Assembly (NCBI GenBank): GCA_903959355.1
Contig: CAJBWJ010000032.1
Span: 1 to 51,838, forward strand
Origin: an uncultured bacterium
GTDB lineage: Bacteria > Patescibacteriota > Microgenomatia > UBA1400 > PJMF01
Length of the DNA: 51,838 nt
Direction: 5' to 3'
Shown: positions 6,100 through 50,283 of the stretch, one piece after another
Position numbering within the stretch: position 1 is the stretch's first letter
Layout: each line of letters begins with the position of its first letter
Notes under the pieces: generated by a model
What the model saw: the letters and a program-made list of their open reading frames with translations, nothing else
Database searches by the model: none
What the model was told of the DNA's origin: nothing
Translations under genes and position numbers: made by a program

Positions 6100-7209
6100 C
6101 TAACTGTTGACTCTAAAAGGCATTGCTATATAGAAATAATCGTCTATTTTTTTGTCTTTAAAAACAGCTGGTTTTAGACTTTCATTCATTCCAAATTCCA
6201 GAGAATCTGGTTTTACTGCGTTAATAAAATCAATTAAATAATTAACATTAAAAGCGATTTCTCCATCTTCGCTTGATAGGTTGTTAATTAGAATCTCTCC
6301 AGAATAATCTCCGAGGGCGGGGGATTGAGAAGTGATATTCATTTTGTCTTTTTCTATTTTTATTTTAACAATATTGGAGACATCTCTTGAAAAAATAGCT
6401 GCTCTCTTAAGCTGTGTCAAAAATTCCTCACCATCAAATTCTATTTTTAAAGAAAAACTTGGAGGAATAATTTTTTCATAAGGAGGGTAATCTCCTTCAA
6501 TTAATCTCACATACATTTCAACTCCATTAATTTTAAACAGAAGCTGCTTTAATTCATCTGAGACTAATATTTCTATACTCTCAACATTAATTTGTTTAGC
6601 GATTCTATATAGCTCATTCAGCGCCTTAGCTGGGATTAAGATCGTTCTTTCTTTCTTAGAATTAATGTCTCTTAGGATTAGATTGCTTAAACGGAAACCA
6701 TCCGTTGCTACGACTTCTAAGCCATGTTGTCCAAATTTTAATAAAAGAGCTGTGAGAATTGGTCTGGACTGATCTATTCCGGCGCAAAAAGAGACTAGAT
6801 TTTGAATTTTCTCCAAGTCTTTTAAATCAAAAATGAAAGAATCTCCTTCAACTACTGGAAAGTTTGGAAATTCATCACTCTTTTGACAAGACAATTTACT
6901 TACAGTCTTATTTTGAGTAATTATCAAAGAGTTTTCTTTTAATTCAATCTCAACTTTTCCGTTATCCAAAGAATTTATTAAGCTTTTAAAAAGTTCTCCA
7001 TTGACTATCAATTCTCCTTCTTCTTCTATTTCAACTATCAATTTTGTTTTTATTCCTAAATAAAGATCTGTCGCTGAGAGGGTTAATTCATTGTCTTTTG
7101 CTTTTAACAGAATAGAAGAAAGAATAGTAATTTGAGGTTTATTAGGAATTACTTTCTGTAGGTAGTTTAGCGAGTTTTTTAAATTTTCTTGTAAAACTTT
7201 TAGTTTCAT
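6100..7209 (-). CDS. dnaN: DNA polymerase III beta sliding clamp
   Basis: 369 aa, immediately downstream of dnaA. Clamp-typical VVATDGFRLS and a C-terminal ...YIAMPFR... motif. Confidence 0.9.
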   Translation of the reverse strand: MKLKVLQENLKNSLNYLQKVIPNKPQITILSSILLKAKDNELTLSATDLYLGIKTKLIVEIEEEGELIVNGELFKSLINSLDNGKVEIELKENSLIITQNKTVSKLSCQKSDEFPNFPVVEGDSFIFDLKDLEKIQNLVSFCAGIDQSRPILTALLLKFGQHGLEVVATDGFRLSNLILRDINSKKERTILIPAKALNELYRIAKQINVESIEILVSDELKQLLFKINGVEMYVRLIEGDYPPYEKIIPPSFSLKIEFDGEEFLTQLKRAAIFSRDVSNIVKIKIEKDKMNITSQSPALGDYSGEILINNLSSEDGEIAFNVNYLIDFINAVKPDSLEFGMNESLKPAVFKDKKIDDYFYIAMPFRVNS

Positions 7210-7516
7210 ATTTTCTTTTACTTAATTATATATTCTTAGTAGTTGTAGTAGTAGGGCATGTGAATAAGTTAATATTTTTGTTTGTTTCTTCTAGTATTTA
7301 TTCAAATGCTGCAGTTCATAAGTGGCGTTATTTTGTTAATTATTTTGTTGAATTATGTAGAACTCTGTCTAAAACTATTATAACTTTTCAACAGTCCTAT
7401 AAGCTTTTTGAGTTATTGTTAACAATGTTTTAACTTTTTATCAACCGAATTTTCCACAATTGTTAATAACTTTGTTTTTATTTTATTTAATACTTAATTT
7501 TTAAAAGATGTATCAA
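7210..7516. other. candidate oriC module in the dnaA-dnaN spacer (DnaA boxes + AT-rich unwinding tract)
   Basis: 307-bp non-coding spacer. TGTGAATAA at 7259-7267 (rc TTATTCACA) and TTTTCCACA at 7450-7458 each have 1 mismatch to TTATCCACA. Two-mismatch copies sit at 7385-7393 and 7438-7446. The tract 7471-7506 has only 2 G/C in 36 nt. Confidence 0.5.
7225..7230 (-). promoter_or_regulatory. candidate -10 hexamer for dnaN
   Basis: Reverse strand TATAAT lies 15 nt upstream of the dnaN ATG (7209). This implies a 5' UTR of about 8 nt without an SD. Confidence 0.3.
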
Positions 7517-9094
7517 TTAATTTGAGATAGCTATCAGTGACATTTTCATTGCAGAAACGTCTTGCTGAATACTTTGGTTTAAAATTAAATCTTGCTCAAT
7601 TTTTTTAACAGCATGAATAACACTACTATGATCTCTTCCTGAAAACCACTGGCCTATTTCCTCGAGAGGGATTTGAAGTTCGTTTCTAAGTAGATACATG
7701 GCAATATGTCTTGCTTTAACTAATTCTTTACTTCTTCTTTTACCACGAACAGCGCTTTGTTTCATTCTGTAATGATTGGCAACAGTTTTGATGATATCTT
7801 GAGGTTTAGCCTTGATTATTTTTTGTTGATTTTGTTTTATTTCGCTCTGTAATATTTTATCAATTAAAACTGAATCTAGAGACAAATTTTGTAGCTCAAC
7901 TGCTGATCTAATTTTTTTAATAATTCCTTCAATTCTTCTAGCACTATCCACCTGTGACGCTATCTTTTGAGCTAATTCAATTGGTATATCAAGTTTATTT
8001 GATTGAGCTTTTAATAAAAGAATTGCAGTTCTTAGCTCAAAAGTTGGTTGCTGAATATCAATCATCAATCCGGCCTCAAAACGAGATCTCAAGCGATCTT
8101 CAAGAAGACTTATCTCCTGAGGCGGACGATCTGAGGTAAGAATAATTTGAGAGTTGATGGAAGTAAGAGCATTAAAAGTATGAAAAAACTCTTCTTGAAC
8201 AGAATTTTTGCCAGCGATAAACTGAATATCGTCTAAAAGAAGAAGGTCTGTTTTGCGATATTTATTTTTTAATTGCAGTGTCGTGTGGCTTTTTATTGCT
8301 CTGACTATTTCATTCGTGAACTGTTCTCCGGAAGCATAAATAATTTCTGCTTCTGGATTGTTTTTAAGCATGTGATGGGCGACAGCATGAATAAGATGAG
8401 TTTTACCAACTCCAACCCCTCCATATAAGAAAAGAGGATTATAGCTTGTTCCTGGATTATTGGCGACGGCGGTGGCAGCTGCATGAGCCATCTCATTGCT
8501 AGATGAAACAGCGAAACTCTCAAAAGTATAGTCTTGACGGAGTCCAATCTGTTGAGCGCGAACCTTAATTCTGTCAAAAGTATTGTTATTAATATTCGCT
8601 TGAGAAAAAAGCTCTTCTACGGTTGGAGATTGTCTATTTCCTTGGTCGTTGCTAAAACTTTTATTGACGATCAAATTATTTTTGAATTCATTATAGTTTT
8701 GTTTGTTTATTTCTTCATGGCTTGGGGAATGTTGCTGTTGAGGATTGCTCTTTGAAAGATTTTCTCCAAAAGCCTCTCTATTTGGATTATTTGAATTAGC
8801 TGATCTTTTTAAATCAGTGACAACAAACTCTATTTCCAGTGGTTTGTTAATATATTTTTCTAATGCTGTTTTTATTTGAGAATATAAGTTCGATTTTAAA
8901 TTCGTTACATGAAAGCCAGTCATGCATGAAATTGTCGCAATTGCATTCTGGTCGTTTTCAATTTTAATTGAAGTCAAGGGGCTTGGAACAATCCAAGTAT
9001 TAAAAAAAGCAGGACTAAGACTGGCTTCTAAATCAACTTTAGCCATCTGCCAAATTTGCTTGATGGTTTCCGAATCATAGACTTGCTCTGACAT
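7517..9094 (-). CDS. dnaA: chromosomal replication initiator DnaA
   Basis: 525 aa. Walker A GGVGVGKTHL, Walker B LLLDDIQF, C-terminal DNA-binding domain (KARHIAMYLLR ... GRDHSSVIHA). Long Asn/Gln/Ser-rich domain II linker. Confidence 0.95.
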   Translation of the reverse strand: MSEQVYDSETIKQIWQMAKVDLEASLSPAFFNTWIVPSPLTSIKIENDQNAIATISCMTGFHVTNLKSNLYSQIKTALEKYINKPLEIEFVVTDLKRSANSNNPNREAFGENLSKSNPQQQHSPSHEEINKQNYNEFKNNLIVNKSFSNDQGNRQSPTVEELFSQANINNNTFDRIKVRAQQIGLRQDYTFESFAVSSSNEMAHAAATAVANNPGTSYNPLFLYGGVGVGKTHLIHAVAHHMLKNNPEAEIIYASGEQFTNEIVRAIKSHTTLQLKNKYRKTDLLLLDDIQFIAGKNSVQEEFFHTFNALTSINSQIILTSDRPPQEISLLEDRLRSRFEAGLMIDIQQPTFELRTAILLLKAQSNKLDIPIELAQKIASQVDSARRIEGIIKKIRSAVELQNLSLDSVLIDKILQSEIKQNQQKIIKAKPQDIIKTVANHYRMKQSAVRGKRRSKELVKARHIAMYLLRNELQIPLEEIGQWFSGRDHSSVIHAVKKIEQDLILNQSIQQDVSAMKMSLIAISN

Positions 9095-9156
9095 TTTTTG
9101 TCTTTCTTTAAAATTAAGAACAGGGTGGGGCAGTAAATAAGCGAACTAGTGCTTAC

Positions 9157-9177
9157 TTATACACAAGGTTTTCCACA
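9157..9177 (+). promoter_or_regulatory. pair of DnaA-box-like 9-mers upstream of dnaA
   Basis: TTATACACA (9157-9165) and TTTTCCACA (9169-9177), same orientation and 3 nt apart. They lie in the 110-nt spacer between the virB4-like stop (9205) and the dnaA start (9094). Confidence 0.5.
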
Positions 9178-9204
9178 GTTAGCAAGGGGCAATTTTTGAA
9201 ACTA

Positions 9205-11433
9205 TTACTTTGGAGGGGTGTAGTCGTTTATGCTATAAACACCGTGCTGATCTGGTTTCATTTCTTTTTTTTCTGGTTCGCCAAAAACAGTTTTTATTTT
9301 AAAGTCTTCTTTTGGCTTCTCTTCTTCATTATTTTGGCTTTGGGCAATGTTATTTTCTCTCTTTTCTAATTCATCATCAGGATTAAAAGCGAGGTGGTCA
9401 CTTTTTAAGGCGCTTTCTGCTGTCTTGTCGGCATTCTCCAGCAAATCCTCTTTAACGTCTATTTCTGGGCTTTGCCATTTTGGTTTATTTTGTTTAATTT
9501 CTTCATGTGAATTTTTAAAATCAGCACTATTAACCAATCGCTGTTTTCTAAGCTCTCTTGTTTTTTTATAGCTCTCATAGCTTTCACTTCTTGGTTCTAG
9601 TCCAGAGCTAATTGTCTTTTTTATTTCTTTGTCATCTTTTTGCTTAAGAATTTCTTCTGGGTTAGTGGTGATAACAGCATGTTCTGCTGGAGAGGCGATA
9701 ACTTTAAGCGCGACGTGGTTCTGACCGGCAAAAAAGATGCCCTCACCAACATCCGATGAGACGAGTAGTTGTCTTTCACCCTCAGATAAGTAAAAAGTTT
9801 GAGTTAAGATTGGTACAGAAGCAGTAGATTGTTTCATTAAAAACTGGATGGAAGCGTTAGAGACGATTGCTTTGCCATAGTCATTGTGTAAAAAGTCTTC
9901 CACATCCTGAGTAATAGTGGTGATGCCTAGATAATATTTACGAGCTCTTTTGACCATCGAATAAACAAAGGCTGCGCTATCTGGATGCATCATAAAGTAC
10001 CAAGCCTCATCAATAACAAGAATACGGCGTTTGAGGTTCTTTTTTACTCTAGTCCAGATGAAATCAAGAATCACATACATGGCAATTGGACGAAGTGATT
10101 CTTCCATTTCTTTAACTGAAAAAACTGTAAACTGAGACTGAATGTTGATGTTGGAAGCCTGATCAAAAATTCCACGGAAAGAACCGGTAATAAATTTTTC
10201 CAAACGGGCGGCAATATCATCACTTTCGTCTTGCTCCATACCGATCAGGGCTTTGTATAGATCTTCCATAAGTGGAGGAGTGTTTTTTTGAGTGGCCGGA
10301 TCTGGAGTAATTCCTTTGGCTTTGTAAGCAGCAATAATAGAGCGATCAAGAAGAGCTTCCTGTTGAGGAGTCATTTCGCCAAGCATAACCTTGAGAAGAC
10401 CGTGAATAGAGAGAATTTTTTGGCCTAATTCATTTTCACCTTCTTCGTAGACATTGGACAAGTCGAAAGGATTTATTTTGGCTTTTGAGCCAAATGTAAA
10501 GTTGATGTATTCGCCGCCAACCATTTTGCAGAGTTCCTCATACTCATGCTCAGGATCGAGAACGATAACTTCGGCATCAAACATTAATTGGCGAAGAACC
10601 TCAAGTTTAACGGTATAGGATTTACCGGCACCAGATTTGGCAAAAATAACCATGTTGGCGTTTTCCATTTTAAAGCGATCAAAAATGACCAAAGAATCAT
10701 TGTGCTCGTTGATGCCATAAACGATACCGGTTTCCATGGTTAATTCTGAAGAAGTGAATGGAAAAGTGGTGGCTAGGGAAGTGGTGTCCATGTTTCTGGT
10801 CACAGAAAGACGATCAACTCCCATTGGTAGGGTGGTCTTAAAACCCTCGTCCATCTGTAGGGCTGATTTTTTGGAAACAATCATTAAAGCACCTAGGGTA
10901 CTTTGAATACTTTTGGTAATTTTATCTAGAACTTCTTTGCTGTCGGCACGAACCGTAACGTAAAGACCAAACTGAAAAAATCTCTCTGAGCCAGCTGCCA
11001 ATTGTTCGCGCATGGAGCGAGCATCACTTAATTTAATTTCTGTATTAATGTTGCTGATTTTTCCGGATCTTATATCCGAAGTAATTTCAGCCTCCATTTC
11101 GGTAATTTTTCTCTTTAAATTATCCAAAATATCACCAGTATCAGATGGAAAGACAAACATGGAAATGTTGGCTTGTTGCGGATAGTTAATGAGCGGCGAG
11201 AGCCAGTTGGCTGGAACAGCTCTCGGATAACCAGCCACAAACAATGTTCTAGTATAAGTAGAATTAATTTTTTGGTAAGTAAAATCAACTTCAATGGCTT
11301 CTGGAGCAATAATATCTTGAATGGTGACTAATCCGCGAGAGAATTCACCCAGTTTTTCTTGCGTGTATTTTTCTGCATCTATCTGATTTTGCTCAGTCGA
11401 AGCGGTGGTTTTCTTTTTGCCAAAAAAATTCAT
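9205..11433 (-). CDS. virB4: VirB4/TrbE/CagE-family T4SS ATPase with Lys/Glu-rich C-terminal tail
   Basis: 742 aa. Walker A FAKSGAGKSYT (DNA ~10621-10641) and Walker B RRILVIDEAWYFM (~10001-10030). The organisation is N-domain plus AAA ATPase. The last ~150 aa are low-complexity and charged. Confidence 0.8.
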   Translation of the reverse strand: MNFFGKKKTTASTEQNQIDAEKYTQEKLGEFSRGLVTIQDIIAPEAIEVDFTYQKINSTYTRTLFVAGYPRAVPANWLSPLINYPQQANISMFVFPSDTGDILDNLKRKITEMEAEITSDIRSGKISNINTEIKLSDARSMREQLAAGSERFFQFGLYVTVRADSKEVLDKITKSIQSTLGALMIVSKKSALQMDEGFKTTLPMGVDRLSVTRNMDTTSLATTFPFTSSELTMETGIVYGINEHNDSLVIFDRFKMENANMVIFAKSGAGKSYTVKLEVLRQLMFDAEVIVLDPEHEYEELCKMVGGEYINFTFGSKAKINPFDLSNVYEEGENELGQKILSIHGLLKVMLGEMTPQQEALLDRSIIAAYKAKGITPDPATQKNTPPLMEDLYKALIGMEQDESDDIAARLEKFITGSFRGIFDQASNINIQSQFTVFSVKEMEESLRPIAMYVILDFIWTRVKKNLKRRILVIDEAWYFMMHPDSAAFVYSMVKRARKYYLGITTITQDVEDFLHNDYGKAIVSNASIQFLMKQSTASVPILTQTFYLSEGERQLLVSSDVGEGIFFAGQNHVALKVIASPAEHAVITTNPEEILKQKDDKEIKKTISSGLEPRSESYESYKKTRELRKQRLVNSADFKNSHEEIKQNKPKWQSPEIDVKEDLLENADKTAESALKSDHLAFNPDDELEKRENNIAQSQNNEEEKPKEDFKIKTVFGEPEKKEMKPDQHGVYSINDYTPPK

Positions 11434-28257: not shown

Positions 28258-29157
28258 CTAGGAAAGAATGCGAATGCCAAAAATTAATTCTAATAATTGA
28301 GCAATCCAGTAAGCTGCAAACAATAGAATAAAGCCTAGAATAGCTGCCGTAATTCTTTGTTTTCCCTCATCAATTGATTTGGAATTAGTAGCTCCAGTAA
28401 GCATTTGAAAGCCTCCTAAAACGAGAACCACAAAGAGAATAATTCCAGCGATTGGAAAAATGAATCCACCAAGAGCTTTGGAAATAATTCCACCAGGAGT
28501 AGTTAAGTCGCCGTCACCTCCACCAATCGTGATCGGATTGAGACCATTCAGTGTTCCTGCTGAAACGGTGGCGCTACTGATCCCGACGTCAGTGCTTTCG
28601 CATTTGCCATCTCTTTCCCAGCCACAGCAGGTTTTTCCGCCAGTCATTGGTACTTCGCCTCCACCACCTCCGCAAATACACTTTTTATCCTCAGTAGTGA
28701 GATAAGTTTCACCACAAAAAGCAGTGGTGTCATCAGGATTTGCAGTTAAGCATTGATCAAAAAAATCTCCGTCTTTGACCCAGCCGCAACAAACATCACG
28801 ATTAACAATCCATAAAATATTTGATTGTTGATAGGACTGCCATTGTCCTCCCTCGCAATTACAAGTTGCACCTTCTGGAACAGTGGCATCGCCTAAAGTT
28901 TCTCCGCAGCCATATTCGTTTGGATCTTCGTAAGCTCGACATTTGCCGCCACCCATAAACCCACAGCAATATTGAGTTCTAATTCCGTGACCTATCTGTT
29001 CAGTGGTTAGATTTGTACTTTCGCAATCACACATTCCTACGATATTAGCGTCATCTGCAGCAGTGAAATATTGTCCACAAGTGGCTGCCTTAGCGGCTCC
29101 AATAAAAAATAAGCTAAAAATTATCTGTAAAAAAGCTATTTTTATAATTTTTTTCAT
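28258..29157 (-). CDS. VirB2/TrbC-like 'T4SS pilin' hairpin fused to a Cys-rich repeat ectodomain
   Basis: 299 aa. Signal peptide MKKIIKIAFLQIIFSLFFIGAAKA|A. Three internal repeats of CxC...CCG[FW]...GxC. The C-terminal two-helix hairpin is GGFIFPIAGIILFVVLVLGGFQMLTGATNSKSIDEGKQRITAAILGFILLFAAYWIAQLL. GGAG lies 8 nt upstream of the ATG. Confidence 0.6.
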   Translation of the reverse strand: MKKIIKIAFLQIIFSLFFIGAAKAATCGQYFTAADDANIVGMCDCESTNLTTEQIGHGIRTQYCCGFMGGGKCRAYEDPNEYGCGETLGDATVPEGATCNCEGGQWQSYQQSNILWIVNRDVCCGWVKDGDFFDQCLTANPDDTTAFCGETYLTTEDKKCICGGGGGEVPMTGGKTCCGWERDGKCESTDVGISSATVSAGTLNGLNPITIGGGDGDLTTPGGIISKALGGFIFPIAGIILFVVLVLGGFQMLTGATNSKSIDEGKQRITAAILGFILLFAAYWIAQLLELIFGIRILS

Positions 29158-29159
29158 GA

Positions 29160-30044
29160 TTACACTCCAAATCCTGGAATATGTAGTATAGATACTCCAA
29201 TGAATTGCAAAATAGTGACTGAAAAAATTACGAATAAGAGACCGATGACTGCAGAAGTGATAATTTCTTTGGCCTCTTTTGTTTTATTTGGGTCTCCTTG
29301 AGAGACGGAGAGCATGAAAGCTCCTACTAGAATCATCACCAGTACAATTCCGCCTCCCAGTCCTAGTCCAATGGTAATCACAACCTTAATAATGCTTTCT
29401 GGATTGCTAGGAATACAGCCAATAGCTGTCCAAATGCCTTTGGAGCTAAAACAATCAGCACAAGCTTGATACTGATCTGTGCCGGTTTTAATTTGTGCGC
29501 AGAGCTCATAACTGCCAATTAGACTTAGGTCTTCATTGCATTGCTCTGCAGAACATTGTGCTTGCACTGGCATTGAACTAGAAACAATAACAGTATTGTT
29601 TTCTGCTCCTTCAACCGAATCGTTTGAAAGATGGACCTCAAACTGATATGAGCAACCGCCTTTTATTTCTCTTCCAGGAATAGTGAAGTTTGTCTGTCCG
29701 TCAGTATAATCAAATAAAAGATATTTGAGGTCGTCTGTGGTTCCATCTAATTCAATTCCATCTGGCCAGCCACTACAACCACTGCTACCAATCAATCTGG
29801 CTTTTACTTTATGTTCTCCTTCTGGCAATGGAGTGCCATTGTTGAAAGCGAGGCCGGCGAGATTGATTGTCACATCTTCTCCAGCTACTACGCAGCCATT
29901 GAAGAAGTTACATTGTTTGCCATCACGAGATTGATAAGCCTCAACTGTCTCAATAATTGGAGCGGAATCAGCTGCAAGAACAAGGTCTTTACTCAATAAA
30001 AAAGAGAAACAAAAAAATCCAAAAACCAGAGCTATTTTTCTCAT
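29160..30044 (-). CDS. VirB2/TrbC-like 'T4SS pilin' hairpin fused to a different Cys-containing ectodomain
   Basis: The ORF track starts at GTG 30053. The ATG at 30044 is preceded by GAGGTGA at a 5-nt spacing and gives the signal peptide MRKIALVFGFFCFSFLLSKDLVLA|AD. The C-terminus GIWTAIGCIPSNPESIIKVVITIGLGLGGGIVLVMILVGAFMLSVSQGDPNKTKEAKEIITSAVIGLLFVIFSVTILQFIG is a two-helix hairpin as in CPR T4SS pilin families. Confidence 0.6.
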   Translation of the reverse strand: MRKIALVFGFFCFSFLLSKDLVLAADSAPIIETVEAYQSRDGKQCNFFNGCVVAGEDVTINLAGLAFNNGTPLPEGEHKVKARLIGSSGCSGWPDGIELDGTTDDLKYLLFDYTDGQTNFTIPGREIKGGCSYQFEVHLSNDSVEGAENNTVIVSSSMPVQAQCSAEQCNEDLSLIGSYELCAQIKTGTDQYQACADCFSSKGIWTAIGCIPSNPESIIKVVITIGLGLGGGIVLVMILVGAFMLSVSQGDPNKTKEAKEIITSAVIGLLFVIFSVTILQFIGVSILHIPGFGV

Positions 30045-30100
30045 TTTATTCACCTCTATATTAAATCATTAAAAAGCTTTAAAACCAAGCTATTATTTAG

Positions 30101-38935: not shown

Positions 38936-41125
38936 TTAAAGATTTCTCTTTTTAGCGTATCTTTCACGACTGTTGCGAACAACTTTTTCTCTGTTTTGAT
39001 TGCTGCTTTTGGCGAGAGGCAGAGTATAGGCAGGGAAAGGACGGCTCAGCACGTTGTCGATAGAGATTTTATTGATGATCTGATGTTTATCCAAGTTGAC
39101 TAGGTCATCTTGAGTGTAGATTCCGCCATATTCTGCTTGGAAATAAGTGGCATCGCCAGCACCCATGACAAAACTAATAATGTTGCCACAGTTGCCAAAG
39201 ATAGCATTACGCACTTCTTCAGGAATTTGGTCAATGTATTGATTAGCGAGAGTTAGATTAAGATGATATTTACGAGCTTCAGAGAGAATTTTGATAAATG
39301 CATCAGTAGCAAAATTTTGAAATTCATCGACATATAAATAAAAGTCAGGACGCTTTTCTTCTGGAACATTAACTCTAGCCATGGCTGCTAATTGAATTTT
39401 GGTAATCATCATGGCTCCAAGCAGAGTGGCATTGTCTTCGCCGAGGCGGCCCTGAGATAGATTGACTAGTAATATTTTGCCCTGTGCCATTAACTCCTCA
39501 ATACTAAAAGAAGATTGATTGGTATTGACGACATTACGTACGATTGGGGATGAAACAAATTGACCAACTTTATTAAGAATAGAGGCAATGGATTCATTGC
39601 GTTGACGCTCTTGCATCTTATTATATTCATTAACCCAGAAGTTTTTTAAGATCGGATCATCAAGCTTTTCGACAATTTCGTCGCGGAATTTCTTATTGGT
39701 TAATAGATCTAACACATCTGACAATTTAGCTTCTTTGCTTTTGAGTAGAGTAAGCAAACAGTTGCGCAAAATATATTCAAGTCTTGGGCCCCAAGAATAA
39801 CTATAGAGTTTTTGGAAAACCGAGATAATACCGGAAGCGATTAGTTCACGATGAATAACATTCTCACCCTCGAATAAATTAATCTGTACAGTTCGATCCT
39901 GATCTGAAGGATCGAAATAAATTACATCATTAATGCGATGCTTTGGAATGAAATCCAATAAAGTTTCCACCAAGTCTCCATGTGGATCGATGACACAAAT
40001 ACCTTCATTGTGTTTGAGGTCATTGATGACCATATTTGCCAAGAGAGTGGACTTACCGGTGCCAGTTTTACCAATTACATAAACATGGCGGCGACGATCG
40101 TTTCTTAATAATCCATATTTAGTACTGCGGTTTTTATAAACAGTTTCAGCCAAGACATTGATTTCATTTTTAATTTCATCTGGAGTATCTTGATTAACGA
40201 CGGGCAATCTCTCTGGAGCTTCACCAAGAATCTTTTTACCCCAAGAAATATTGTGGATATTACCTAGTTTTTGACTTGGTAAGTGGAATAAGGTGGCGGT
40301 TTCATCAAGACTGAGACTTAATAAAGGAGAAGCACGGAAACTTCTTTTATTCATTCTGTTGAGAAAAATTCTCTTAAAAACATATCTATTTCTTAGACGA
40401 AGAGAGTTGCTTTCACTTTGACTAATGGCCTGGTAGGCAGCGTAGATATTTTCCATGAGCAACTTACTTTTTTTGCGATTATCGGTCGAAACAGCAATTT
40501 TAAAAGCAGTGTTGATTGTTCTTTTGTCTATTTTTTCTTGAATGAGGCTTTTTTGAGAGTGAGTTTCTAGTTTTTCAGATGAAATGCCATGATTTTTCGG
40601 CCAGAAGTCACTTTCATTATCTAAGACCATCTGAATAAGAATAGTGTCTTGACCATCATTTTTGGACAGAGTCGACATCAGGGTAGAAAGAGGATCGATG
40701 TCTTTGAATTCTTGATAAGTTTTAAGTGGCAGATAGCTGTGATTCTTGAGTTTTAAACTGGCCAGGCGAATAGCTTTTTTTGGTTCAAAAAAGAACTCAA
40801 CTGGATCAAATGATAGTTCAGAAATGACCGCTTCTGGATAGCTGGCATGAATGGCACCCTTAAAGTATTCAAGGATGCGCATTGGCACGTGAGCCAAGAA
40901 ATGAATGGTTTGCTCTCGCACCATGATTTCAAAACTTAGGCTTTCGTCTTGGCCGATTAGTTTGTAAAAAAGGTTGTTTTTCAGTTTTGGCAGAGTAGAG
41001 AAAAGCTGCACCGCAGTTTCCTCTGTTTCTTCGCTGTCTTTGCTAGTTCTGATCTCAAGTAGAATGTGGTTTTTTAGCACGCCTATAGTATAGCAAATTG
41101 ATGATAAAGATGACACGCTGCTCAC
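38936..41125 (-). CDS. VirD4/TraD/TraG-like (TrwB-type) coupling ATPase homolog lacking TM helices
   Basis: 729 aa with a GTG start. Walker A VIGKTGTGKSTLL (DNA ~40047-40078), then VIDPHGDL, FYLYVDEFQNF and LSEARKYHLNLTLANQY, as in T4CP / TraM-recognition-type ATPases. No hydrophobic N-terminal segment. Confidence 0.6.
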   Translation of the reverse strand: MSSVSSLSSICYTIGVLKNHILLEIRTSKDSEETEETAVQLFSTLPKLKNNLFYKLIGQDESLSFEIMVREQTIHFLAHVPMRILEYFKGAIHASYPEAVISELSFDPVEFFFEPKKAIRLASLKLKNHSYLPLKTYQEFKDIDPLSTLMSTLSKNDGQDTILIQMVLDNESDFWPKNHGISSEKLETHSQKSLIQEKIDKRTINTAFKIAVSTDNRKKSKLLMENIYAAYQAISQSESNSLRLRNRYVFKRIFLNRMNKRSFRASPLLSLSLDETATLFHLPSQKLGNIHNISWGKKILGEAPERLPVVNQDTPDEIKNEINVLAETVYKNRSTKYGLLRNDRRRHVYVIGKTGTGKSTLLANMVINDLKHNEGICVIDPHGDLVETLLDFIPKHRINDVIYFDPSDQDRTVQINLFEGENVIHRELIASGIISVFQKLYSYSWGPRLEYILRNCLLTLLKSKEAKLSDVLDLLTNKKFRDEIVEKLDDPILKNFWVNEYNKMQERQRNESIASILNKVGQFVSSPIVRNVVNTNQSSFSIEELMAQGKILLVNLSQGRLGEDNATLLGAMMITKIQLAAMARVNVPEEKRPDFYLYVDEFQNFATDAFIKILSEARKYHLNLTLANQYIDQIPEEVRNAIFGNCGNIISFVMGAGDATYFQAEYGGIYTQDDLVNLDKHQIINKISIDNVLSRPFPAYTLPLAKSSNQNREKVVRNSRERYAKKRNL

Positions 41126-41279
41126 TATTTGAGAAGTTATGCTACTTTTTACACAAAAAAAGAACTTTTACAATTTTATGTGCAAAACTAGGTGAAACTC
41201 TTCAATAAATTGCTTTTTTATAAAAATATAGGACATCATATAAAATGAAGAATAAAAGTTATAGGACTAGGATTGATTA

Positions 41280-41307
41280 TTGAAAAAATTATACAACGGA
41301 ATATAAT
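41280..41307 (+). promoter_or_regulatory. near-consensus sigma70-type promoter (plus strand)
   Basis: TTGAAA (41280-41285), 16-nt spacer, TATAAT (41302-41307). No CDS follows on this strand before the hairpin at 41621. Confidence 0.4.
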
Positions 41308-41399
41308 AACTGACAGTTCTTTAAAGCAAGATTTTCGTTAGGGGAGGTGACCTTTTCAGCTTTTTCTCAGGAAAAAATGAAAGAATCTTAAATAGACAA

Positions 41400-41570
41400 A
41401 TAAAAAAATCCATCCCGTTTAAGACTTGTTCTTAAGGCAGTCAAGAACCTAAACAAGATGGATTATAGCGAACATTATTACCGCTGATGAATCACGAATA
41501 ACAATGTAGCTTGTTTTAGTTACCTTCACAGATAACTTATTGTTTATAGGTTATCATCCACTCCTCTAAT
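41400..41570 (-). ncRNA. candidate ~170-nt sRNA or attenuated 5' leader of the coupling-ATPase gene
   Basis: Starts about 7 nt downstream of the 41576-41605 promoter and ends at the 41401-41463 terminator. It contains GAGGAG (41566-41561) 3 nt before a 6-codon mini-ORF, ATG ATA ACC TAT AAA CAA TAA (41557-41537). Confidence 0.35.
41401..41463 (-). terminator. intrinsic-terminator-like hairpin + T-run (minus strand)
   Basis: On the minus strand ATCCATC (41463-41457) pairs with GATGGAT (41414-41408). Inner pairings are CTTGTT/AACAAG and GTTCTT/AAGAAC. The hairpin is followed by TTTTTTT-A-TTTG (complement of the A-run at 41402-41408 and flanking bases). Confidence 0.45.
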
Positions 41571-41575
41571 AGTAA

Positions 41576-41605
41576 ATTATATTTAAGTGATATTTTTTGT
41601 ATCAA
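41576..41605 (-). promoter_or_regulatory. near-consensus sigma70-type promoter (minus strand)
   Basis: Reverse strand TTGATA (41605-41600), 18-nt spacer, TATAAT (41581-41576). It points toward the coupling-ATPase gene 450 nt away. Confidence 0.4.
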
Positions 41606-41620
41606 ATTGTATAAGAATCT

Positions 41621-41690
41621 TCTGCGGAAGCTCGGTAGTTGGGCAGGCAACCGAGCTTCCGCAGAGGGTTCTTTATTTCTCTTTTTTCTT
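41621..41690 (+). terminator. strong GC-rich hairpin + T-rich tail (intrinsic-terminator-like)
   Basis: Perfect 15-bp stem TCTGCGGAAGCTCGG (41621-41635) / CCGAGCTTCCGCAGA (41651-41665) with a 15-nt loop, followed by GGGTTCTTTATTTCTCTTTTTTCTT. It is by far the most stable hairpin I noticed in this AT-rich window. Confidence 0.6.
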
Positions 41691-41691
41691 A

Positions 41692-41697
41692 TATAAT
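41692..41697 (+). promoter_or_regulatory. candidate -10 hexamer for the lipoprotein gene (leaderless geometry)
   Basis: TATAAT followed by 6 nt, then ATG at 41704. Confidence 0.35.
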
Positions 41698-41703
41698 TTT
41701 ATT

Positions 41704-42447
41704 ATGTTTAATCCTCAAGAACTTATTTCTGGATTTTTAAAAGATCAAAACAAAGAACCAAAAAAAGATCAGCGCAAGCGTTCTCCGATTGTTTTAAGAA
41801 TAGAAATTGCTGTTATATTTGCCTTGGCTGGAAGCTTAATAAGTGGTTGTTCTGTTCTTGAAAATAGAGCCAAAGAGAGAATAGCGTCTGCAGGCGTACC
41901 TCCAGCAGTCGCCAATGATCCAGACCTAATCTGGCAAGCTTCAAATGGAGCAACTGATGAAGAGTTGCGAAGTTATGCTAACAGCTTATTGTTGGGAAGA
42001 GAAAGAGAGCTCAATCAGGCGATGGCGACGCAGCAGGCAGAGAAAGAAGCGGCTGCTTTTGCTACACCAACGGCTACGCAAGAACCAGAGATAAACGAAT
42101 TTAAGCCAAAGACTCAAATTAATTTTGAAAAAATAACCGACGGAGTTTATAGTTTTCAGACTGATTCAAATATTGAGATAACTGATCCAGGTTTTATTTT
42201 ATATATAAAGAATACTTTGAAGAAATTGGAAAATTTAGAAAATATCAGAGTTTTCATCTCTGTTATAGATGATGCTACTGGAGTGACTCAAATCGTTCTT
42301 GACTCGACAGCTTCTGACTATAAAGAAGCAAACGGACCGCTCTTTGCTTATGTAGGAGATAAAGTCTTCATTGCTGCCGACGGAGCAGCTTTAACCGAGT
42401 TACTAGATTCGCAGGGAATTAAACATAAAACTTTCGGATTACCATAA
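41704..42447 (+). CDS. lipoprotein, function unknown
   Basis: ATG at 41704 gives MFNPQELISGF...IAVIFALAGSLISGC|SVLEN (lipobox). The ORF-track start at 41587 would translate through the terminator hairpin and was rejected. Confidence 0.6.
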   Translation: MFNPQELISGFLKDQNKEPKKDQRKRSPIVLRIEIAVIFALAGSLISGCSVLENRAKERIASAGVPPAVANDPDLIWQASNGATDEELRSYANSLLLGRERELNQAMATQQAEKEAAAFATPTATQEPEINEFKPKTQINFEKITDGVYSFQTDSNIEITDPGFILYIKNTLKKLENLENIRVFISVIDDATGVTQIVLDSTASDYKEANGPLFAYVGDKVFIAADGAALTELLDSQGIKHKTFGLP

Positions 42448-48534: not shown

Positions 48535-48561
48535 CGTATGTTAAGATTAAACTATAAAAAG

Positions 48562-49242
48562 ATGAAAAACAAGCCTTCAAATCATCGACAAAAAGGCCTC
48601 ACCTTGATAGAAATTCTCATCGTTGTGGCCATTCTTTTGCTCCTTTTAGTTGCACTTTTTAGGCTGTTTGGCAGCGGAACAAATCGTGCGAGAGATGCGC
48701 AGCGCAAGACAGATTTGAAAAACATTAAATTGGCTTTTGAAGACTACTACAACGACAATCAAAGCTATCCGCCAGTAGAGACTTTATCAGACTGCGGTGG
48801 TGATTCATTGAAACCATATTTGAAAACAGTACCTTGTGACCCAAGTACAGGAGAACCATATCTTTACCTTCCAGCCTTTGGAAATTATAGCTATAGAGTG
48901 CTTAGTATATTGGAAGATTCATCTGATCCAATTATAGAAAAATTAGGTTGTATTGGTGGTTGTGGAGGTATTCCAGAAGGTAATTCTAAATATGCAGACC
49001 GAGAAAAATATGTTTATGCAATTGCAGAAGGGGAACCTCTTGCTCCTGGAGTGACTGCTGCTCCTACAGCTGAGCCTGGGTATTGTGAGACTCATGCCTG
49101 CTACTGTTGTTCTAATTCTGCGTATACAACTTCTCAAGATTGTAATGTTTGGGCAGCTAGTGGCGGTAATAATTGTGACATGGGACCATATTTATTAATT
49201 CCTGATTGTTACGACAATACACCTTGTGTCAGTGATTTTTAA
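48562..49242 (+). CDS. type IV pilin / pseudopilin-like protein (class III signal peptide), Cys-rich C-terminus
   Basis: MKNKPSNHRQKG|LTLIEILIVVAILLLLLVALF (the ORF track starts 8 codons earlier at 48538). Shares RDAQRKTDLKNIKLAFEDYYNDNQSYP with the two following genes. Confidence 0.75.
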   Translation: MKNKPSNHRQKGLTLIEILIVVAILLLLLVALFRLFGSGTNRARDAQRKTDLKNIKLAFEDYYNDNQSYPPVETLSDCGGDSLKPYLKTVPCDPSTGEPYLYLPAFGNYSYRVLSILEDSSDPIIEKLGCIGGCGGIPEGNSKYADREKYVYAIAEGEPLAPGVTAAPTAEPGYCETHACYCCSNSAYTTSQDCNVWAASGGNNCDMGPYLLIPDCYDNTPCVSDF

Positions 49243-49258
49243 ATATAAACTTAAAGTT

Positions 49259-49819
49259 ATGAGGATAAAATCAAACCAAAAAGCTTTTACTTTGCTCGAA
49301 CTTCTTGTAGTGATGGCAATTATGGCAATTTTAACTGTCATCGGCATTCGTGCTTTTGGCACTGTCCAGCAGAAATCCAGAGACAGTCATCGTAAACAGG
49401 GCATGCAGAGCATTAATAAGGCTTTAGAGCTTTATTACAATGACTATAAGCGTTATCCATATTCTTCTTTAGATGGAAAAATTGAAGGTTGTGGAGCAGG
49501 TGCTCTTCAAGCTTGTTCTTGGGGAGATGTCTGGCAAAATACCAGCAATCAAACTTTATATATGAGTGAGTTACCAGTTGATTTGGGAGGTAATCAATAT
49601 TTTTATATAGCAGATAGTCAGGGTAGAAGCTTTAGTCTTTTTACTTACTTAGAAAATACTGAAGACAGTAATGTGGTTAGGGATACTGATGATAACCCGG
49701 CTTATTATAGTGGTACTTCTTGTCGCATCTCGAACGGATCTTTGCTAACAGATAGCTGTAATTATGTAGTAATGAGTTCAAATACAATCACCACTCCAGC
49801 AGTGGTAAGTGGCAACTAA
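49259..49819 (+). CDS. type IV pilin / pseudopilin-like protein
   Basis: ATG at 49259 gives MRIKSNQKA|FTLLELLVVMAIMAILTVIG, then SRDSHRKQGMQSINKALELYYNDYKRYP. The ORF-track start at 49226 overlaps the previous gene and adds a non-signal-like prefix. Confidence 0.75.
   Translation: MRIKSNQKAFTLLELLVVMAIMAILTVIGIRAFGTVQQKSRDSHRKQGMQSINKALELYYNDYKRYPYSSLDGKIEGCGAGALQACSWGDVWQNTSNQTLYMSELPVDLGGNQYFYIADSQGRSFSLFTYLENTEDSNVVRDTDDNPAYYSGTSCRISNGSLLTDSCNYVVMSSNTITTPAVVSGN
49283..49311 (+). repeat. 29-bp exact direct repeat, copy 1 (pilin signal/N-helix coding)
   Basis: GCTTTTACTTTGCTCGAACTTCTTGTAGT is identical to 49834-49862. Confidence 0.9.
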
Positions 49820-49821
49820 TT

Positions 49822-50283
49822 ATGAAAAAAAACGCTTTTACTTTGCTCGAACTTCTTGTAGTAATTTCTATCTTAGGTATTTTGGTGGCCGTGATTTTAC
49901 CAAATTTGGTTGGTGTTCGTGCTCGTGCTCGCGATAGTGCTTTGAAAAATGACATACGTCAGCTCAAGACTGCTTTGCGCATGTATTACAACGACAATCA
50001 AAAATATCCTCCAAGTGATGGTAGTGGTAATATTATTGGCTGTGGAGCTACTGGCGCTTCAGTTTGCCCAAATAATGATGGAAGCTTTGGCATAGGCACT
50101 CTTTTATATATGAAGGAAATGCCAACTAGTGAAGAGTATAGCTACAGCTCAGTTTCAGATGGAGACGATTTTTTGCTTTCAACCTTACTAGAAAATGCTT
50201 CAGACTCTGATATTGAAGATAGCATTGCCCATTGCTTAGTAGAAACTCCAATCGCTTCAAACTATTATGTTTGCGCTGATTAG
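49822..50283 (+). CDS. type IV pilin / pseudopilin-like protein
   Basis: MKKNA|FTLLELLVVISILGILVAVILP, then ARDSALKNDIRQLKTALRMYYNDNQKYP. 153 aa. Confidence 0.8.
   Translation: MKKNAFTLLELLVVISILGILVAVILPNLVGVRARARDSALKNDIRQLKTALRMYYNDNQKYPPSDGSGNIIGCGATGASVCPNNDGSFGIGTLLYMKEMPTSEEYSYSSVSDGDDFLLSTLLENASDSDIEDSIAHCLVETPIASNYYVCAD
49834..49862 (+). repeat. 29-bp exact direct repeat, copy 2
   Basis: GCTTTTACTTTGCTCGAACTTCTTGTAGT is identical to 49283-49311. Confidence 0.9.

Follow-up and report, generated by a model that had tools for sequence, protein, structure and literature searches.

Plasmids and toxin-antitoxin loci are the main settings in which control by convergent counter-transcripts is known. 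Counter-transcripts of plasmid replicons include the ColE1 pair RNA I/RNA II and the attenuation systems of pT181, pIP501 and pAMbeta1, and counter-transcript attenuation is the mechanism both of Anti-Q/Qs in pCF10 and of the pT181 and pIP501 rep leaders. The genomes of bacteria of the candidate phyla radiation are tiny and hold hardly any DNA to spare, and the regulatory RNAs described for these bacteria are, to our knowledge, very few. In pCF10, prgQ and prgX are transcribed convergently over 223 nt, and Qs, the sense RNA, has a length of 380 nt (PMC3181467).

Here, we analyzed an intergenic spacer in a 51,838-nt stretch of DNA (the window; contig CAJBWJ010000032.1) from an uncultured, ultra-small member of the Patescibacteria. 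A sequence-only reading had proposed that this spacer carries convergent promoters with opposed terminators, forming a sense/antisense RNA switch for the adjacent coupling-type ATPase of a T4SS-like system, and had likened it to prgQ/prgX. We found a strand-specific, conserved RNA structure on each strand and conserved promoter motifs in both directions, which at the level of sequence bears out the convergent, overlapping layout. We consider it reasonably likely that the spacer holds two convergent, overlapping chromosomal non-coding RNA genes (RNA A on the minus strand and RNA B on the plus strand), with RNA B probably under counter-transcript control. The likeness to prgQ/prgX holds for the geometry, that is, the overlap and the length of the sense RNA, but does not extend to a signalling peptide, a repressor or a conserved ORF.

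Results

The spacer and its neighbourhood

The spacer (41126-41703) is the largest non-coding region of the window, as had been claimed; the runner-up is the 307-nt gap between dnaN and dnaA. Its real length is probably 623 nt (41081-41703), because homologues and gene callers place the ATPase start at GTG 41080, giving a protein of 714 aa. The flanking genes are divergent, with the ATPase on the minus strand and a gene for a 247-aa, lipoprotein-like product on the plus strand, the latter followed by rho, an M23 peptidase gene and obg. The relatives used for comparison were Pacebacteria-like Patescibacteria, comprising about 18 genomes found through the ATPase gene and about 45 metagenome contigs. 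The metagenome loci were retrieved with a search pattern that required the loop of hairpin B (see below), and the ATPase-anchored loci make up the independent set.

In the relatives, the module always lies between radA and the rho operon. In the window, as in many of the relatives, the ATPase adjoins it on the left, and there are about 15 loci in which the module is present, the ATPase is absent and radA is the immediate left neighbour. On the right, rho-M23-obg follows in the same orientation in most loci that reach that far, with or without the ATPase on the left. A block of about 115 nt (about 41403-41515) is 100% identical in five genomes and has much less conserved flanks, despite an ATPase protein identity of only 81-87% among the same five. 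A mobile-element or phage origin was rejected, as no plasmid match was found and the matches to viral contigs were chance ones in high-GC coding DNA.

Neither the window nor 11 related loci gave a gathering-score match to Rfam 15 (4227 families), and with an E-value threshold the only matches were chance ones of microRNA type to the long hairpin. ARAGORN reported no tRNA or tmRNA. SRP RNA domain IV, 6S, RNase P, tmRNA and T-box were rejected as identities by eye against their consensus sequences, as their required internal loops or motifs are absent from hairpins B and A1. A literature search returned no description of these RNAs in Patescibacteria.

The plus strand

P(+), the predicted promoter of the RNA B precursor (41280-41307, plus strand), is of sigma-70 type, with a -35 element TTGAAA (41280-41285), a 16-nt spacer and a -10 element TATAAT (41302-41307). 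It scores 11/12 matches and would start transcription near 41314. Promoter-like sites as such are not above chance in this AT-rich stretch (7 found vs 5.3 +/- 2.3 in shuffles), and support for the promoters therefore comes from conservation. In the five-genome alignment the P(+) hexamers are conserved and the DNA between them is variable, and nearly all true loci carry a match of at least 10/12 to TTGAC(A/T/G)-N16-18-TATA(C/G/A)T at a distance of 230-430 nt on the upstream side of hairpin B. The P(+)-hairpin B unit also exists without RNA A in some lineages: in L094, L170 and L201, P(+) stands only 77-104 nt upstream of a hairpin B with a T-run, and no A1 is present. As both elements occur there with no RNA A between them, P(+) and hairpin B can be taken as one transcription unit. 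The promoter and the plus-strand hairpin with its T-tail lie where they had first been placed, and both are conserved in relatives.

The 5' part of the plus RNA that is outside the overlap with RNA A (41314-41400, plus strand) contains AGTTCTTTAAAG (41316-41327), a conserved motif in clade alignments, and a purine-rich stretch (41338-41349). The latter may pair with 41557-41569 as a long-range closing helix of the plus RNA; the indication, a duplex energy of -13.1 kcal/mol for cognate vs -9.6 kcal/mol for non-cognate partners, is suggestive but weak, and RNAalifold does not recover the pairing. As a whole, the plus RNA (41310-41695) folds with a stability of z = -6.5 against shuffles.

The conserved 3' domain of the plus RNA is hairpin B (41615-41671, plus strand), a 22-bp stem with the apical loop N-GUUGGGCAGGC-N (core 41638-41648), in which GUUGGGCAGGC is the conserved 11-nt loop. 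The two 24-nt arms (41613-41636 and 41650-41673) are 92% complementary, and the folding energy in the window is -45.8 kcal/mol. Across 58 distinct sequences, 94.4% of the pairs are standard and 18/22 pairs show changes on both sides; none of 500 shuffles reaches this pairing and slid controls give 35-49%. The wobble pairs point to the plus strand (175 G-U cells vs 28 if read on the minus strand), as does stability, the plus-strand form being the more stable in 56/58 sequences (means -36.7 vs -25.5 kcal/mol). A covariance model finds a single copy in the window (83 bits). The exact loop is present in 17 ATPase-anchored loci with one variant (L009), while its invariance in the metagenome set is partly owed to the loop-requiring search pattern. 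The loop and the wobble-containing inner stem are conserved across lineages whose ATPases are only 55-63% identical.

A U-rich tract (41672-41690, plus strand) follows hairpin B and, as read from the sequence, probably forms the 3' end of this genome's plus RNA. A T-run after hairpin B is seen in many relatives and lacking in many others; we give no exact fraction, as the automated U-run test was unreliable here (folding ran into the flanks). Judged by its conservation, hairpin B is probably more than a plain intrinsic terminator, because the loop and inner stem are conserved and many relatives are without the U-tract. Its most probable role in this clade is that of an RNA that binds a protein or base-pairs. 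Targets of the loop elsewhere in the window were not above chance.

The minus strand

RNA A is a predicted minus-strand RNA of about 140-170 nt, with conserved hairpins A1 and A2 followed by U7. The fold of the minus RNA (41575-41390) has a stability of z = -5.4 against shuffles. Two promoters could serve it. P(-1), the one proposed by the sequence-only reading (41576-41605, minus strand), is TTGATA-N18-TATAAT, an 11/12 match with a start near 41569. Those genomes of the window clade that were read for it keep it as TTGAT(A/G/C)-N18-(T/G)ATAAT, the spacer varying in the alignment, and it is not found as such in other clades. Just downstream lies P(-2) (41548-41576, minus strand), with a -35 element TTTACT (41576-41571), a 17-nt spacer, a TG (41556-41555) and a -10 element TAACCT (41553-41548). 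Its pattern, TTTAC(T/A/C)-N17-TA(nnn)T and mostly with TGn, occurs at the same place in all clades, with unrelated spacers. The cross-clade promoter is P(-2), which would move the start from about 41569 to about 41541.

This placement also bears on the suggestion of leader-peptide attenuation through a mini-ORF, MITYKQ, behind a GAGGAG. Both the GAGGAG and the ATG of the mini-ORF fall inside the P(-2) spacer, and the ORF has 6, 6, 3, about 30 and 22 codons in five close genomes and is absent or different in other clades, which argues against it.

At the 5' end of RNA A, hairpin H1 (41519-41536, minus strand; GUUAUCUGUGAAGGUAAC) is predicted in the single-sequence fold. Relatives show compensatory differences (for example GUAUGUCUC...GAGACAAAC in L004; GAUUAUCU...AGAUAAUC in L024), and both sides change at 4/8 pairs in the plus-strand alignment. 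The most widely conserved part of RNA A is hairpin A1 (41472-41507, minus strand), in which a conserved CG/GC internal loop joins an 11-bp stem to a 3-bp stem with a variable loop. Its 34 distinct sequences have 98.1% standard pairs and both-side changes at 6/14 pairs. Wobble pairs occur at 4 positions, with many G-U/U-G on the minus strand, and the minus-strand form was more stable in 37/37 folded sequences. The A1 covariance model finds one copy in the window (41466-41513, minus strand, 52.8 bits).

Hairpin A2 with U7 (41401-41464, minus strand) is the predicted intrinsic terminator of RNA A, with a stem at 41464-41407, an apical CUGCC and a U-run at 41407-41401. Here the minus-strand terminator first described at 41463-41401 was recovered: A2 folds with -24.8 kcal/mol on the minus strand vs -14.7 kcal/mol on the plus strand, and it fits the plain definition of an intrinsic terminator. 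It has three G-U pairs in the window, which would be A-C if read on the plus strand, and 1-4 G-U pairs and a U-run across sequences. It is shared by 19 distinct long-type sequences, among which the stem varies, for instance from AUCCAUC/GAUGGAU to AUCCACC/GGUGGAU. A simple terminator scan missed the hairpins of both strands, as they fall outside the loop and stem sizes that it allows.

Arrangement of the two units

We infer that both RNAs are made, with the starts and ends given above, and that RNA A controls RNA B. The strong promoter P(+) would drive a plus RNA of about 370 nt whose conserved functional part is the 3' hairpin B, and in this genome hairpin B and the U-tract would end the transcript just ahead of the promoter of the next gene. 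The RNA A gene would be nested on the opposite strand inside the leader of the plus RNA, starting at about 41541 or about 41569 and ending at U7 (41401); being nested, RNA A would be complementary over its whole length to 140-170 nt in the middle of the plus RNA. The transcription units would collide head-on across about 230-255 bp. In L184, L198 and L008, no more than about 15 nt separate the end of the RNA A terminator from the -10 element of P(+), so RNA A would cover the plus RNA from its 5' end there. The most likely mechanism is that RNA A, as a counter-transcript, would set the amount of mature hairpin-B RNA, through polymerase collision and/or an RNA A/plus-RNA duplex that may be an RNase III substrate.

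Whether plus transcripts reach hairpin B depends on how A1 and A2 read from the other side, and a rather improbable alternative builds on this point. It holds that two independent small RNA genes lie side by side, with plus transcripts ending at the back of A1 or A2, hairpin B served by its own unrecognised promoter, and no mutual control. In many short-type lineages an A-run and a T-run border A1, which gives it the look of a two-way terminator (reverse-complement fold -9 to -21 kcal/mol), so that a short-type A1 could stop plus transcripts before hairpin B. The region between P(+) and A1, moreover, is not conserved between L012 and L015. However, when read on the plus strand, the A1 and A2 of the window clade form weak hairpins (-7 kcal/mol for A1) without a good U-tract, which makes them poor terminators in that direction, and plus transcription should therefore pass them. 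We found no conserved promoter between P(-) and hairpin B, nor any separate hairpin B promoter in short-type lineages, and in the three lineages without A1 hairpin B is directly driven by P(+).

A second alternative accepts the pairing of the units and changes their output. Here hairpin B with its U-tract would be an attenuator, set in a long leader, of the downstream operon (the 247-aa gene, rho, the M23 peptidase gene and obg), and RNA A would decide whether transcription from P(+) reads through into rho. This has in its favour the position of the module upstream of rho-M23-obg in the same orientation, whether or not the ATPase is present, the U-tract after hairpin B in the window, and a geometry like that of pCF10 (223-nt convergent overlap, 380-nt Qs; PMC3181467). 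We nevertheless hold it to be unlikely. The U-tract is missing in many lineages, and promoter-like elements (TTGAC-N17-TATAAT or CATAAT) lie directly 3' of hairpin B in many lineages, often after TCCTATAAT; in the window, a TATAAT stands 7 nt ahead of the ATG of the 247-aa gene. A search for an antiterminator found none, the best competitor pairing of the arms reaching -12.8 vs -45.8 kcal/mol for hairpin B itself; given this and the promoter-like elements of the next gene, a switch by alternative folding is not supported either. In addition, an attenuator does not require a conserved 11-nt loop, and L094, L170 and L201 carry the unit without any counter-transcript.

Direct contact between the two RNAs through kissing loops (CUGCC of RNA A, GGCAG of hairpin B) amounts to a 5-nt match in the window, which is not above chance (p about 0.7 vs shuffles). 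About a dozen loci reach a loop match of at least 7 nt, among them one clade, L014, L129 and L134, and overall the mean longest match is 5.5 vs 5.0 in shuffles and 4.8 on the control strand.

The ATPase and the left-hand motifs

The sequence-only reading had the minus transcript continue past its terminator as a leader of about 445 nt for the ATPase mRNA, so that a sense/antisense or leader-peptide switch would gate the ATPase. The ATPase does adjoin the module on the left, both in the window and in many relatives, and read-through of the minus terminator is possible in principle. However, a promoter scan lists, with a TG, a predicted promoter of the ATPase's own (41087-41098, minus strand), with the extended -10 element TGCTATACT (41095-41087). 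GTG 41080 sits 6 nt downstream of TGCTATACT, and in every lineage a conserved extended -10 element stands 6-10 nt before the start codon; with the start codon this close, the ATPase mRNA would be leaderless or nearly so. AGTATAGCAAAT is invariant in five genomes, and (T)GCTATACT is found 6-10 nt ahead of the ATPase ATG in distant loci. P(+) and other conserved elements lie between the RNA A terminator and the ATPase, and P(+) would fire against any such read-through. As the ATPase has its own promoter at the start codon and the module persists in loci without the ATPase, the leader idea is disfavoured; with the mini-ORF not conserved either, we regard it as very improbable. By this comparison, the type IV secretion-like ATPase is not under the control of the RNA pair.

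The conserved DNA motifs left of P(+) (41147-41267) comprise two kinds of element. First, two DnaA-box-like 9-mers are arranged head-to-head, TTTTACACA at 41147-41155 (plus strand) and TTTTGCACA at 41187-41179 (minus strand), with one mismatch each to TTATNCACA; those of relatives are exact or near-exact TTATNCACA / TGTGNATAA. They resemble a protein site rather than a stem, because the degenerate fifth position differs without compensation. Second, two GTCCTATA boxes lie at 41234-41227 and 41267-41260 (minus strand). The window contains 3 copies of GTCCTATA vs 0.69 expected, and the third adjoins oriC. The DnaA-box-like pair raised the question of a replication origin, which was rejected for the spacer, as dnaA (7517-9094), dnaN (6100-7209), DnaA-trios with a DnaA box (about 7239-7270) and the GC-skew minimum (near 8 kb) all fall at 6-9 kb.

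It is highly unlikely, in our estimation, that the spacer owes its conservation to a DNA-level element (an origin, a DnaA-controlled region or transcription factor palindromes) or to a hidden gene for a small protein. The 9-mers and GTCCTATA repeats in its left third are what such a DNA element would have, but oriC, in the dnaA/dnaN gap with its DnaA-trios and GC-skew minimum, is 33 kb away. Furthermore, the hairpin arms covary so as to keep their pairs, asymmetric loops are fixed and wobbles are strand-specific, and these three features argue for a folded single strand and not a duplex binding site. In favour of a small gene, none of the close relatives interrupts a 26-codon frame (41529-41449, minus strand), but this frame lies in the block without any synonymous changes and its start is not kept, and the other small ORFs of the spacer are interrupted by stops in relatives. 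Overall, no conserved small ORF was found on either RNA in the spacer and its relatives, and the hidden small protein gene that had been named as a refuter was rejected. A type I toxin-antitoxin locus was likewise rejected, given that no toxin ORF is conserved, small ORFs stop in relatives and the open frame lacks a kept start.

Discussion

If our preferred reading is right, counter-transcript control would appear here as a fixed chromosomal feature beside rho, in a spacer of about 620 nt that keeps about 115 nt identical while the proteins have diverged by 13-19%. Confirmation by transcripts would add two new RNA families, for which alignments and covariance models are ready, and a promoter grammar for these organisms, consisting of TTGACA-17-TATACT together with extended -10 promoters that drive leaderless mRNAs. 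It would also give a concrete, testable RNA circuit in an uncultured lineage. A broader proposal, which we put forward as doubtful, is that hairpin-B RNA is abundant and specific to the lineage of Pacebacteria-like Patescibacteria, that its conserved loop and wobble-rich stem bind a conserved protein or RNA partner, possibly linked to the rho operon that always follows, and that its output is governed by RNA A and by DnaA at the upstream boxes. If true, this would amount to an RNA circuit tied to the cell cycle, in organisms for which hardly any riboregulation is known.

The module resembles pCF10 prgQ/prgX in several respects, as far as its predicted transcripts go. The promoters face each other, with starts about 227-255 bp apart here vs 223 nt; the sense RNA ends at a strong terminator (about 370 nt predicted vs 380 nt for Qs); and a shorter counter-transcript with its own terminator, here A2 and U7, lies wholly inside the sense leader. 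Unlike pCF10, which is a conjugative plasmid, the module is chromosomal and stands among the housekeeping genes radA, rho and obg. Its sense RNA has no peptide ORF equivalent to prgQ/iCF10, no repressor gene such as prgX follows the counter-transcript and indeed no gene is found past the RNA A terminator, the downstream gene carries its own promoter-like elements, and no alternative fold was found. In addition, the loop of the module's terminator hairpin is conserved, which hints at a separate function for this hairpin.

Plasmid replicons share with the module an antisense RNA that matches the 5' part of a longer sense RNA in complement and ends near the start of that RNA (as L184, L198 and L008 would have it here), and both RNAs are built of hairpins. 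The module differs in that it is no replicon, with oriC 33 kb off by dnaA and no rep gene following, has no mutually exclusive leader folds, and shows loop-loop complementarity of RNA A and hairpin B at chance level in the window. The module is also like the orphan structured RNA motifs of the type collected in Rfam, in being a conserved, covarying intergenic structure with its own predicted promoter and terminator in a single bacterial lineage. Unlike such motifs, it would comprise two RNAs on opposite strands of the same DNA.

Genomic context of the spacer

The window comes from the chromosome of a Patescibacteria (CPR) bacterium near "Candidatus Pacebacteria", and two ENA metagenome assemblies hold contigs near-identical to it. 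The spacer lies in a housekeeping neighbourhood (CofD, cytidylyltransferase, RadA, ATPase, a 247-aa protein, Rho, M23/LysM peptidase, Obg and pilins), flanked divergently by the ATPase gene on the minus strand (domains DUF8128, DUF87 and TrwB_AAD_bind) and the 247-aa gene on the plus strand. The longest ATPase ORF (38936-41125, 729 aa, GTG at 41125) is probably not the true frame, since homologues start at MLKNH..., corresponding to GTG 41080 (714 aa), with which one of two gene calls concurs. From this start, the spacer comprises 623 non-coding nt (41081-41703); the sequence-only reading was right to call it the largest in the window, and it exceeds the 578 nt given there. The 714-aa ATPase to its left shares 89% identity with a Pacebacteria GW2011_GWF2_38_9 protein and is strongly conserved in Patescibacteria (7558 proteins at E <= 1e-30 among 8000 candidates scored).

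The 247-aa protein (41704-42447) has no Pfam match and a lipoprotein-like N-terminus (..LAGSLISGCS..). It is confined to the window clade, where the three closest relatives share 35-47% identity with it and locus L186 26%; outside that clade the module (the spacer with its RNA hairpins) precedes rho directly or with other genes intervening. T4SS and pilus parts are dispersed over 9205-11433 and 28258-30053 (minus) and 48538-50283 (plus): a VirB4/TraG-P-loop ATPase by dnaA, two T4SS-pilin-like proteins and three N-methyl (type IV pilin) genes. The "T4SS-like system" seems not to be a single operon.

Conserved hairpins on opposite strands

Both predicted hairpins were present, one on the plus strand with 24-nt arms (hairpin B, 41613-41673, -45.8 kcal/mol) and one on the minus strand followed by U7 (A2, 41464-41407, -24.8 kcal/mol), and the predicted RNAs fold far more stably than shuffles (z = -5.4 and -6.5). 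Rfam 15 gave no match at the gathering score in the window or 11 related loci, and only chance microRNA-type matches at an E-value threshold; the window holds no tRNA or tmRNA. For comparison, 80 genome loci were retrieved via alignment of ATPase homologues. A hairpin-core pattern scan of metagenome contigs added ~45 low-GC true loci, the remaining matches being chance occurrences in high-GC coding DNA; in this set the search pattern dictates the loop, and the ATPase-anchored loci form the unbiased set. Among the latter, 17 carry the exact loop GUUGGGCAGGC, and a covariance-model search of the other 63 found one further copy with a variant loop, AUUGGGCAGGU. In the four closest genomes, the spacer is 75-84% identical over 260-560 nt (BLASTN; ATPase protein 81-87%), and where ATPase identity falls to just 55-63%, ~90% identity (BLASTN) persists over 41 nt at the apex of the plus hairpin. 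A five-genome alignment is invariant over ~115 nt (41403-41515), with much less conserved flanks.

Across 58 distinct sequences, 94.4% of hairpin B pair cells are standard and 18/22 pairs have changed on both sides. In 500 shuffles not one reached any of five measures, and sliding the partner by 1-3 columns reduced pairing to 35-49%. G-U cells number 175 on the plus strand versus 28 on the minus, and the plus-strand fold is more stable in 56/58 (means -36.7 versus -25.5 kcal/mol). This pattern argues for an RNA structure on the plus strand. A duplex protein-binding palindrome was rejected, as it would show the opposite of what is seen here, where the arms covary and an asymmetric loop is fixed. 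The hairpin B model has a single copy in the window and none near the ATPase in Levy-, Roizman-, Gottesman- or Saccharibacteria.

The hairpins opposite likewise point to a minus-strand RNA, RNA A. For hairpin A1 (41507-41472), all 37 distinct sequences folded gave greater stability on the minus strand; in a 34-sequence alignment, 98.1% of its pairs are standard, 6/14 change on both sides, and G-U/U-G pairs are frequent at four positions. Its internal loop CG/GC is conserved and its apical loop variable. A2 occurs in "long-type" lineages with 1-4 G-U pairs, its minus-strand fold usually being the more stable by 5-14 kcal/mol, and compensatory differences between close genomes are seen in the 5' hairpin H1 (41536-41519). 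The A1 model also matches L018:46-94, L021:1187-1237 and L171:686-743, where no hairpin B was seen near the ATPase; in L018 a ~1160-aa gene lies between A1 and the ATPase, so insertions can separate the module from it.

Promoters and predicted overlap of the two RNAs

The convergent promoters of the sequence-only reading each match at 11/12 positions (plus, P(+), 41280-41307; minus, 41605-41576). Promoter-like matches in this AT-rich region are not above chance (7 versus 5.3 in shuffles), so a single match proves nothing; conservation is more informative. P(+) is conserved in the window clade as TTGAAA/TTGTAA-N16-17-TATAAT/TATACT and elsewhere as TATAGG-TTGAC(A/T/G)-N16-18-TATA(C/G)T, with 10/12 or better in almost every true locus. 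For RNA A, one promoter element recurs in all clades, TTTAC(A/T/C)-N17-TA(nnn)T (41576-41548 in the window), in most cases with TGn and with variable spacers; TTGATA-N18-TATAAT, kept in the window clade, lies directly upstream in tandem. RNA A would therefore start near 41541 and/or 41569 and end at 41401. The observation of the sequence-only reading is confirmed, and more strongly than one sequence could reveal.

In three loci (L094, L170 and L201), just 77-104 nt separate P(+) from the downstream hairpin B and its T-run; no A1 was detected, and the interval is too short for RNA A. P(+) and hairpin B therefore belong to a single unit, RNA B, whose leader in most lineages is predicted to contain the RNA A gene nested in antisense. 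The RNA A terminator stops at most ~15 nt from the P(+) -10 element in three others (L184, L198 and L008), where RNA A would span the plus RNA from its extreme 5' end. On their reverse sides, A1 and A2 of the window clade form weak hairpins that lack a good U-tract, and plus transcription should read past them. A- and T-runs flank A1 in short-type lineages, where it may terminate transcription in both directions; this is the greatest uncertainty in the overlap model. Pairing between loops of RNA A and hairpin B did not exceed chance in the window, and the signal for a long-range helix within the plus RNA is no more than suggestive. At L014:3640-3720, the RNA A site lacks A1 and bears a different hairpin whose loop CCUGCCC complements 7 nt of the hairpin B loop, the best single case and otherwise not general.

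What the module may control

Gating of the ATPase, with RNA A as its leader, did not hold: the ATPase has its own extended -10, TGCTATACT (41095-41087), 6-10 nt ahead of the start codon in every lineage, which implies a leaderless or near-leaderless mRNA, and at ~15 loci the site lacks the ATPase and radA adjoins it directly on the left. Such -10 elements without a Shine-Dalgarno precede both flanking genes (ATPase, 41087-41095, start 41080; 247-aa gene, TATAAT, 41692-41697, start 41704) and are found in distant loci, which suggests that leaderless mRNAs are in use in this lineage. Leader-peptide attenuation fared no better, the MITYKQ frame having 6, 6, 3, ~30 and 22 codons in close genomes and being different or absent elsewhere. 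A hidden protein gene was rejected, as small ORFs are interrupted by stops in relatives and the open 26-codon frame lies within the nucleotide-invariant block, its start not kept. A mobile element was also rejected.

The main rival has RNA A governing read-through into the rho operon; rho-M23-obg lies on the right of the module in most loci reaching that far. However, the best competitor for either arm of hairpin B reaches -12.8 versus -45.8 kcal/mol, promoter-like elements directly follow hairpin B in many lineages (in the window, TATAAT 7 nt ahead of the ATG), and an attenuator does not need the conserved 11-nt loop. For these reasons we rank it below a counter-transcript role in which RNA A would set the level of RNA B.

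The spacer was also rejected as oriC, with origin features found instead at dnaA (7517-9094, minus) and dnaN (6100-7209, minus). Their 307-nt spacer (7210-7516) carries, at 7239-7270, repeated TAG triplets resembling a DnaA-trio (TAGTAGTTGTAGTAGTAG), then GGGC and DnaA box TGTGAATAA; additional boxes occur at 7450, 9157 and 9169 (origin-associated regions 7210-7516 and 9095-9204), and the cumulative GC skew minimum is near 8 kb. This is the probable chromosomal origin. The octamer GTCCTATA has 3 copies in 52 kb versus 0.69 expected, two in the RNA spacer 33 nt apart (41227-41234 and 41260-41267, minus) and one in the origin spacer (7394-7401, plus); a related TCCTATAAT/TATAGG motif adjoins the -35 of P(+) and of the post-hairpin B promoter in many relatives. 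Between the ATPase promoter and P(+), head-to-head DnaA-box-like 9-mers (41147-41155, plus; 41179-41187, minus) are conserved across clades (L020, L012, L014, L157), in some as exact TTATCCACA/TGTGGATAA. Uncompensated variation at the degenerate fifth position makes the pair resemble a protein site, and DnaA may regulate the divergent promoters.

Comparison with known systems

Plasmid counter-transcript systems resemble the spacer pair in geometry, and prgQ/prgX of pCF10 is the closest. In pCF10, 223 nt are transcribed convergently, the Qs RNA measures 380 nt and termination in the leader is enhanced by Anti-Q (PMC3181467). The hallmarks beyond geometry, namely a conjugation operon or plasmid replicon, a peptide with a repressor, leader folds that exclude each other and downstream genes dependent on read-through, are absent or not evident here. 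Of the sequence-only interpretation, the sense/antisense pair is supported, and ATPase gating and a leader peptide are not. Judged from comparative sequence, hairpin B and RNA A probably represent two undescribed RNA families confined to a Pacebacteria-like clade, and they appear to work like a cis-antisense pair outside those plasmid families.
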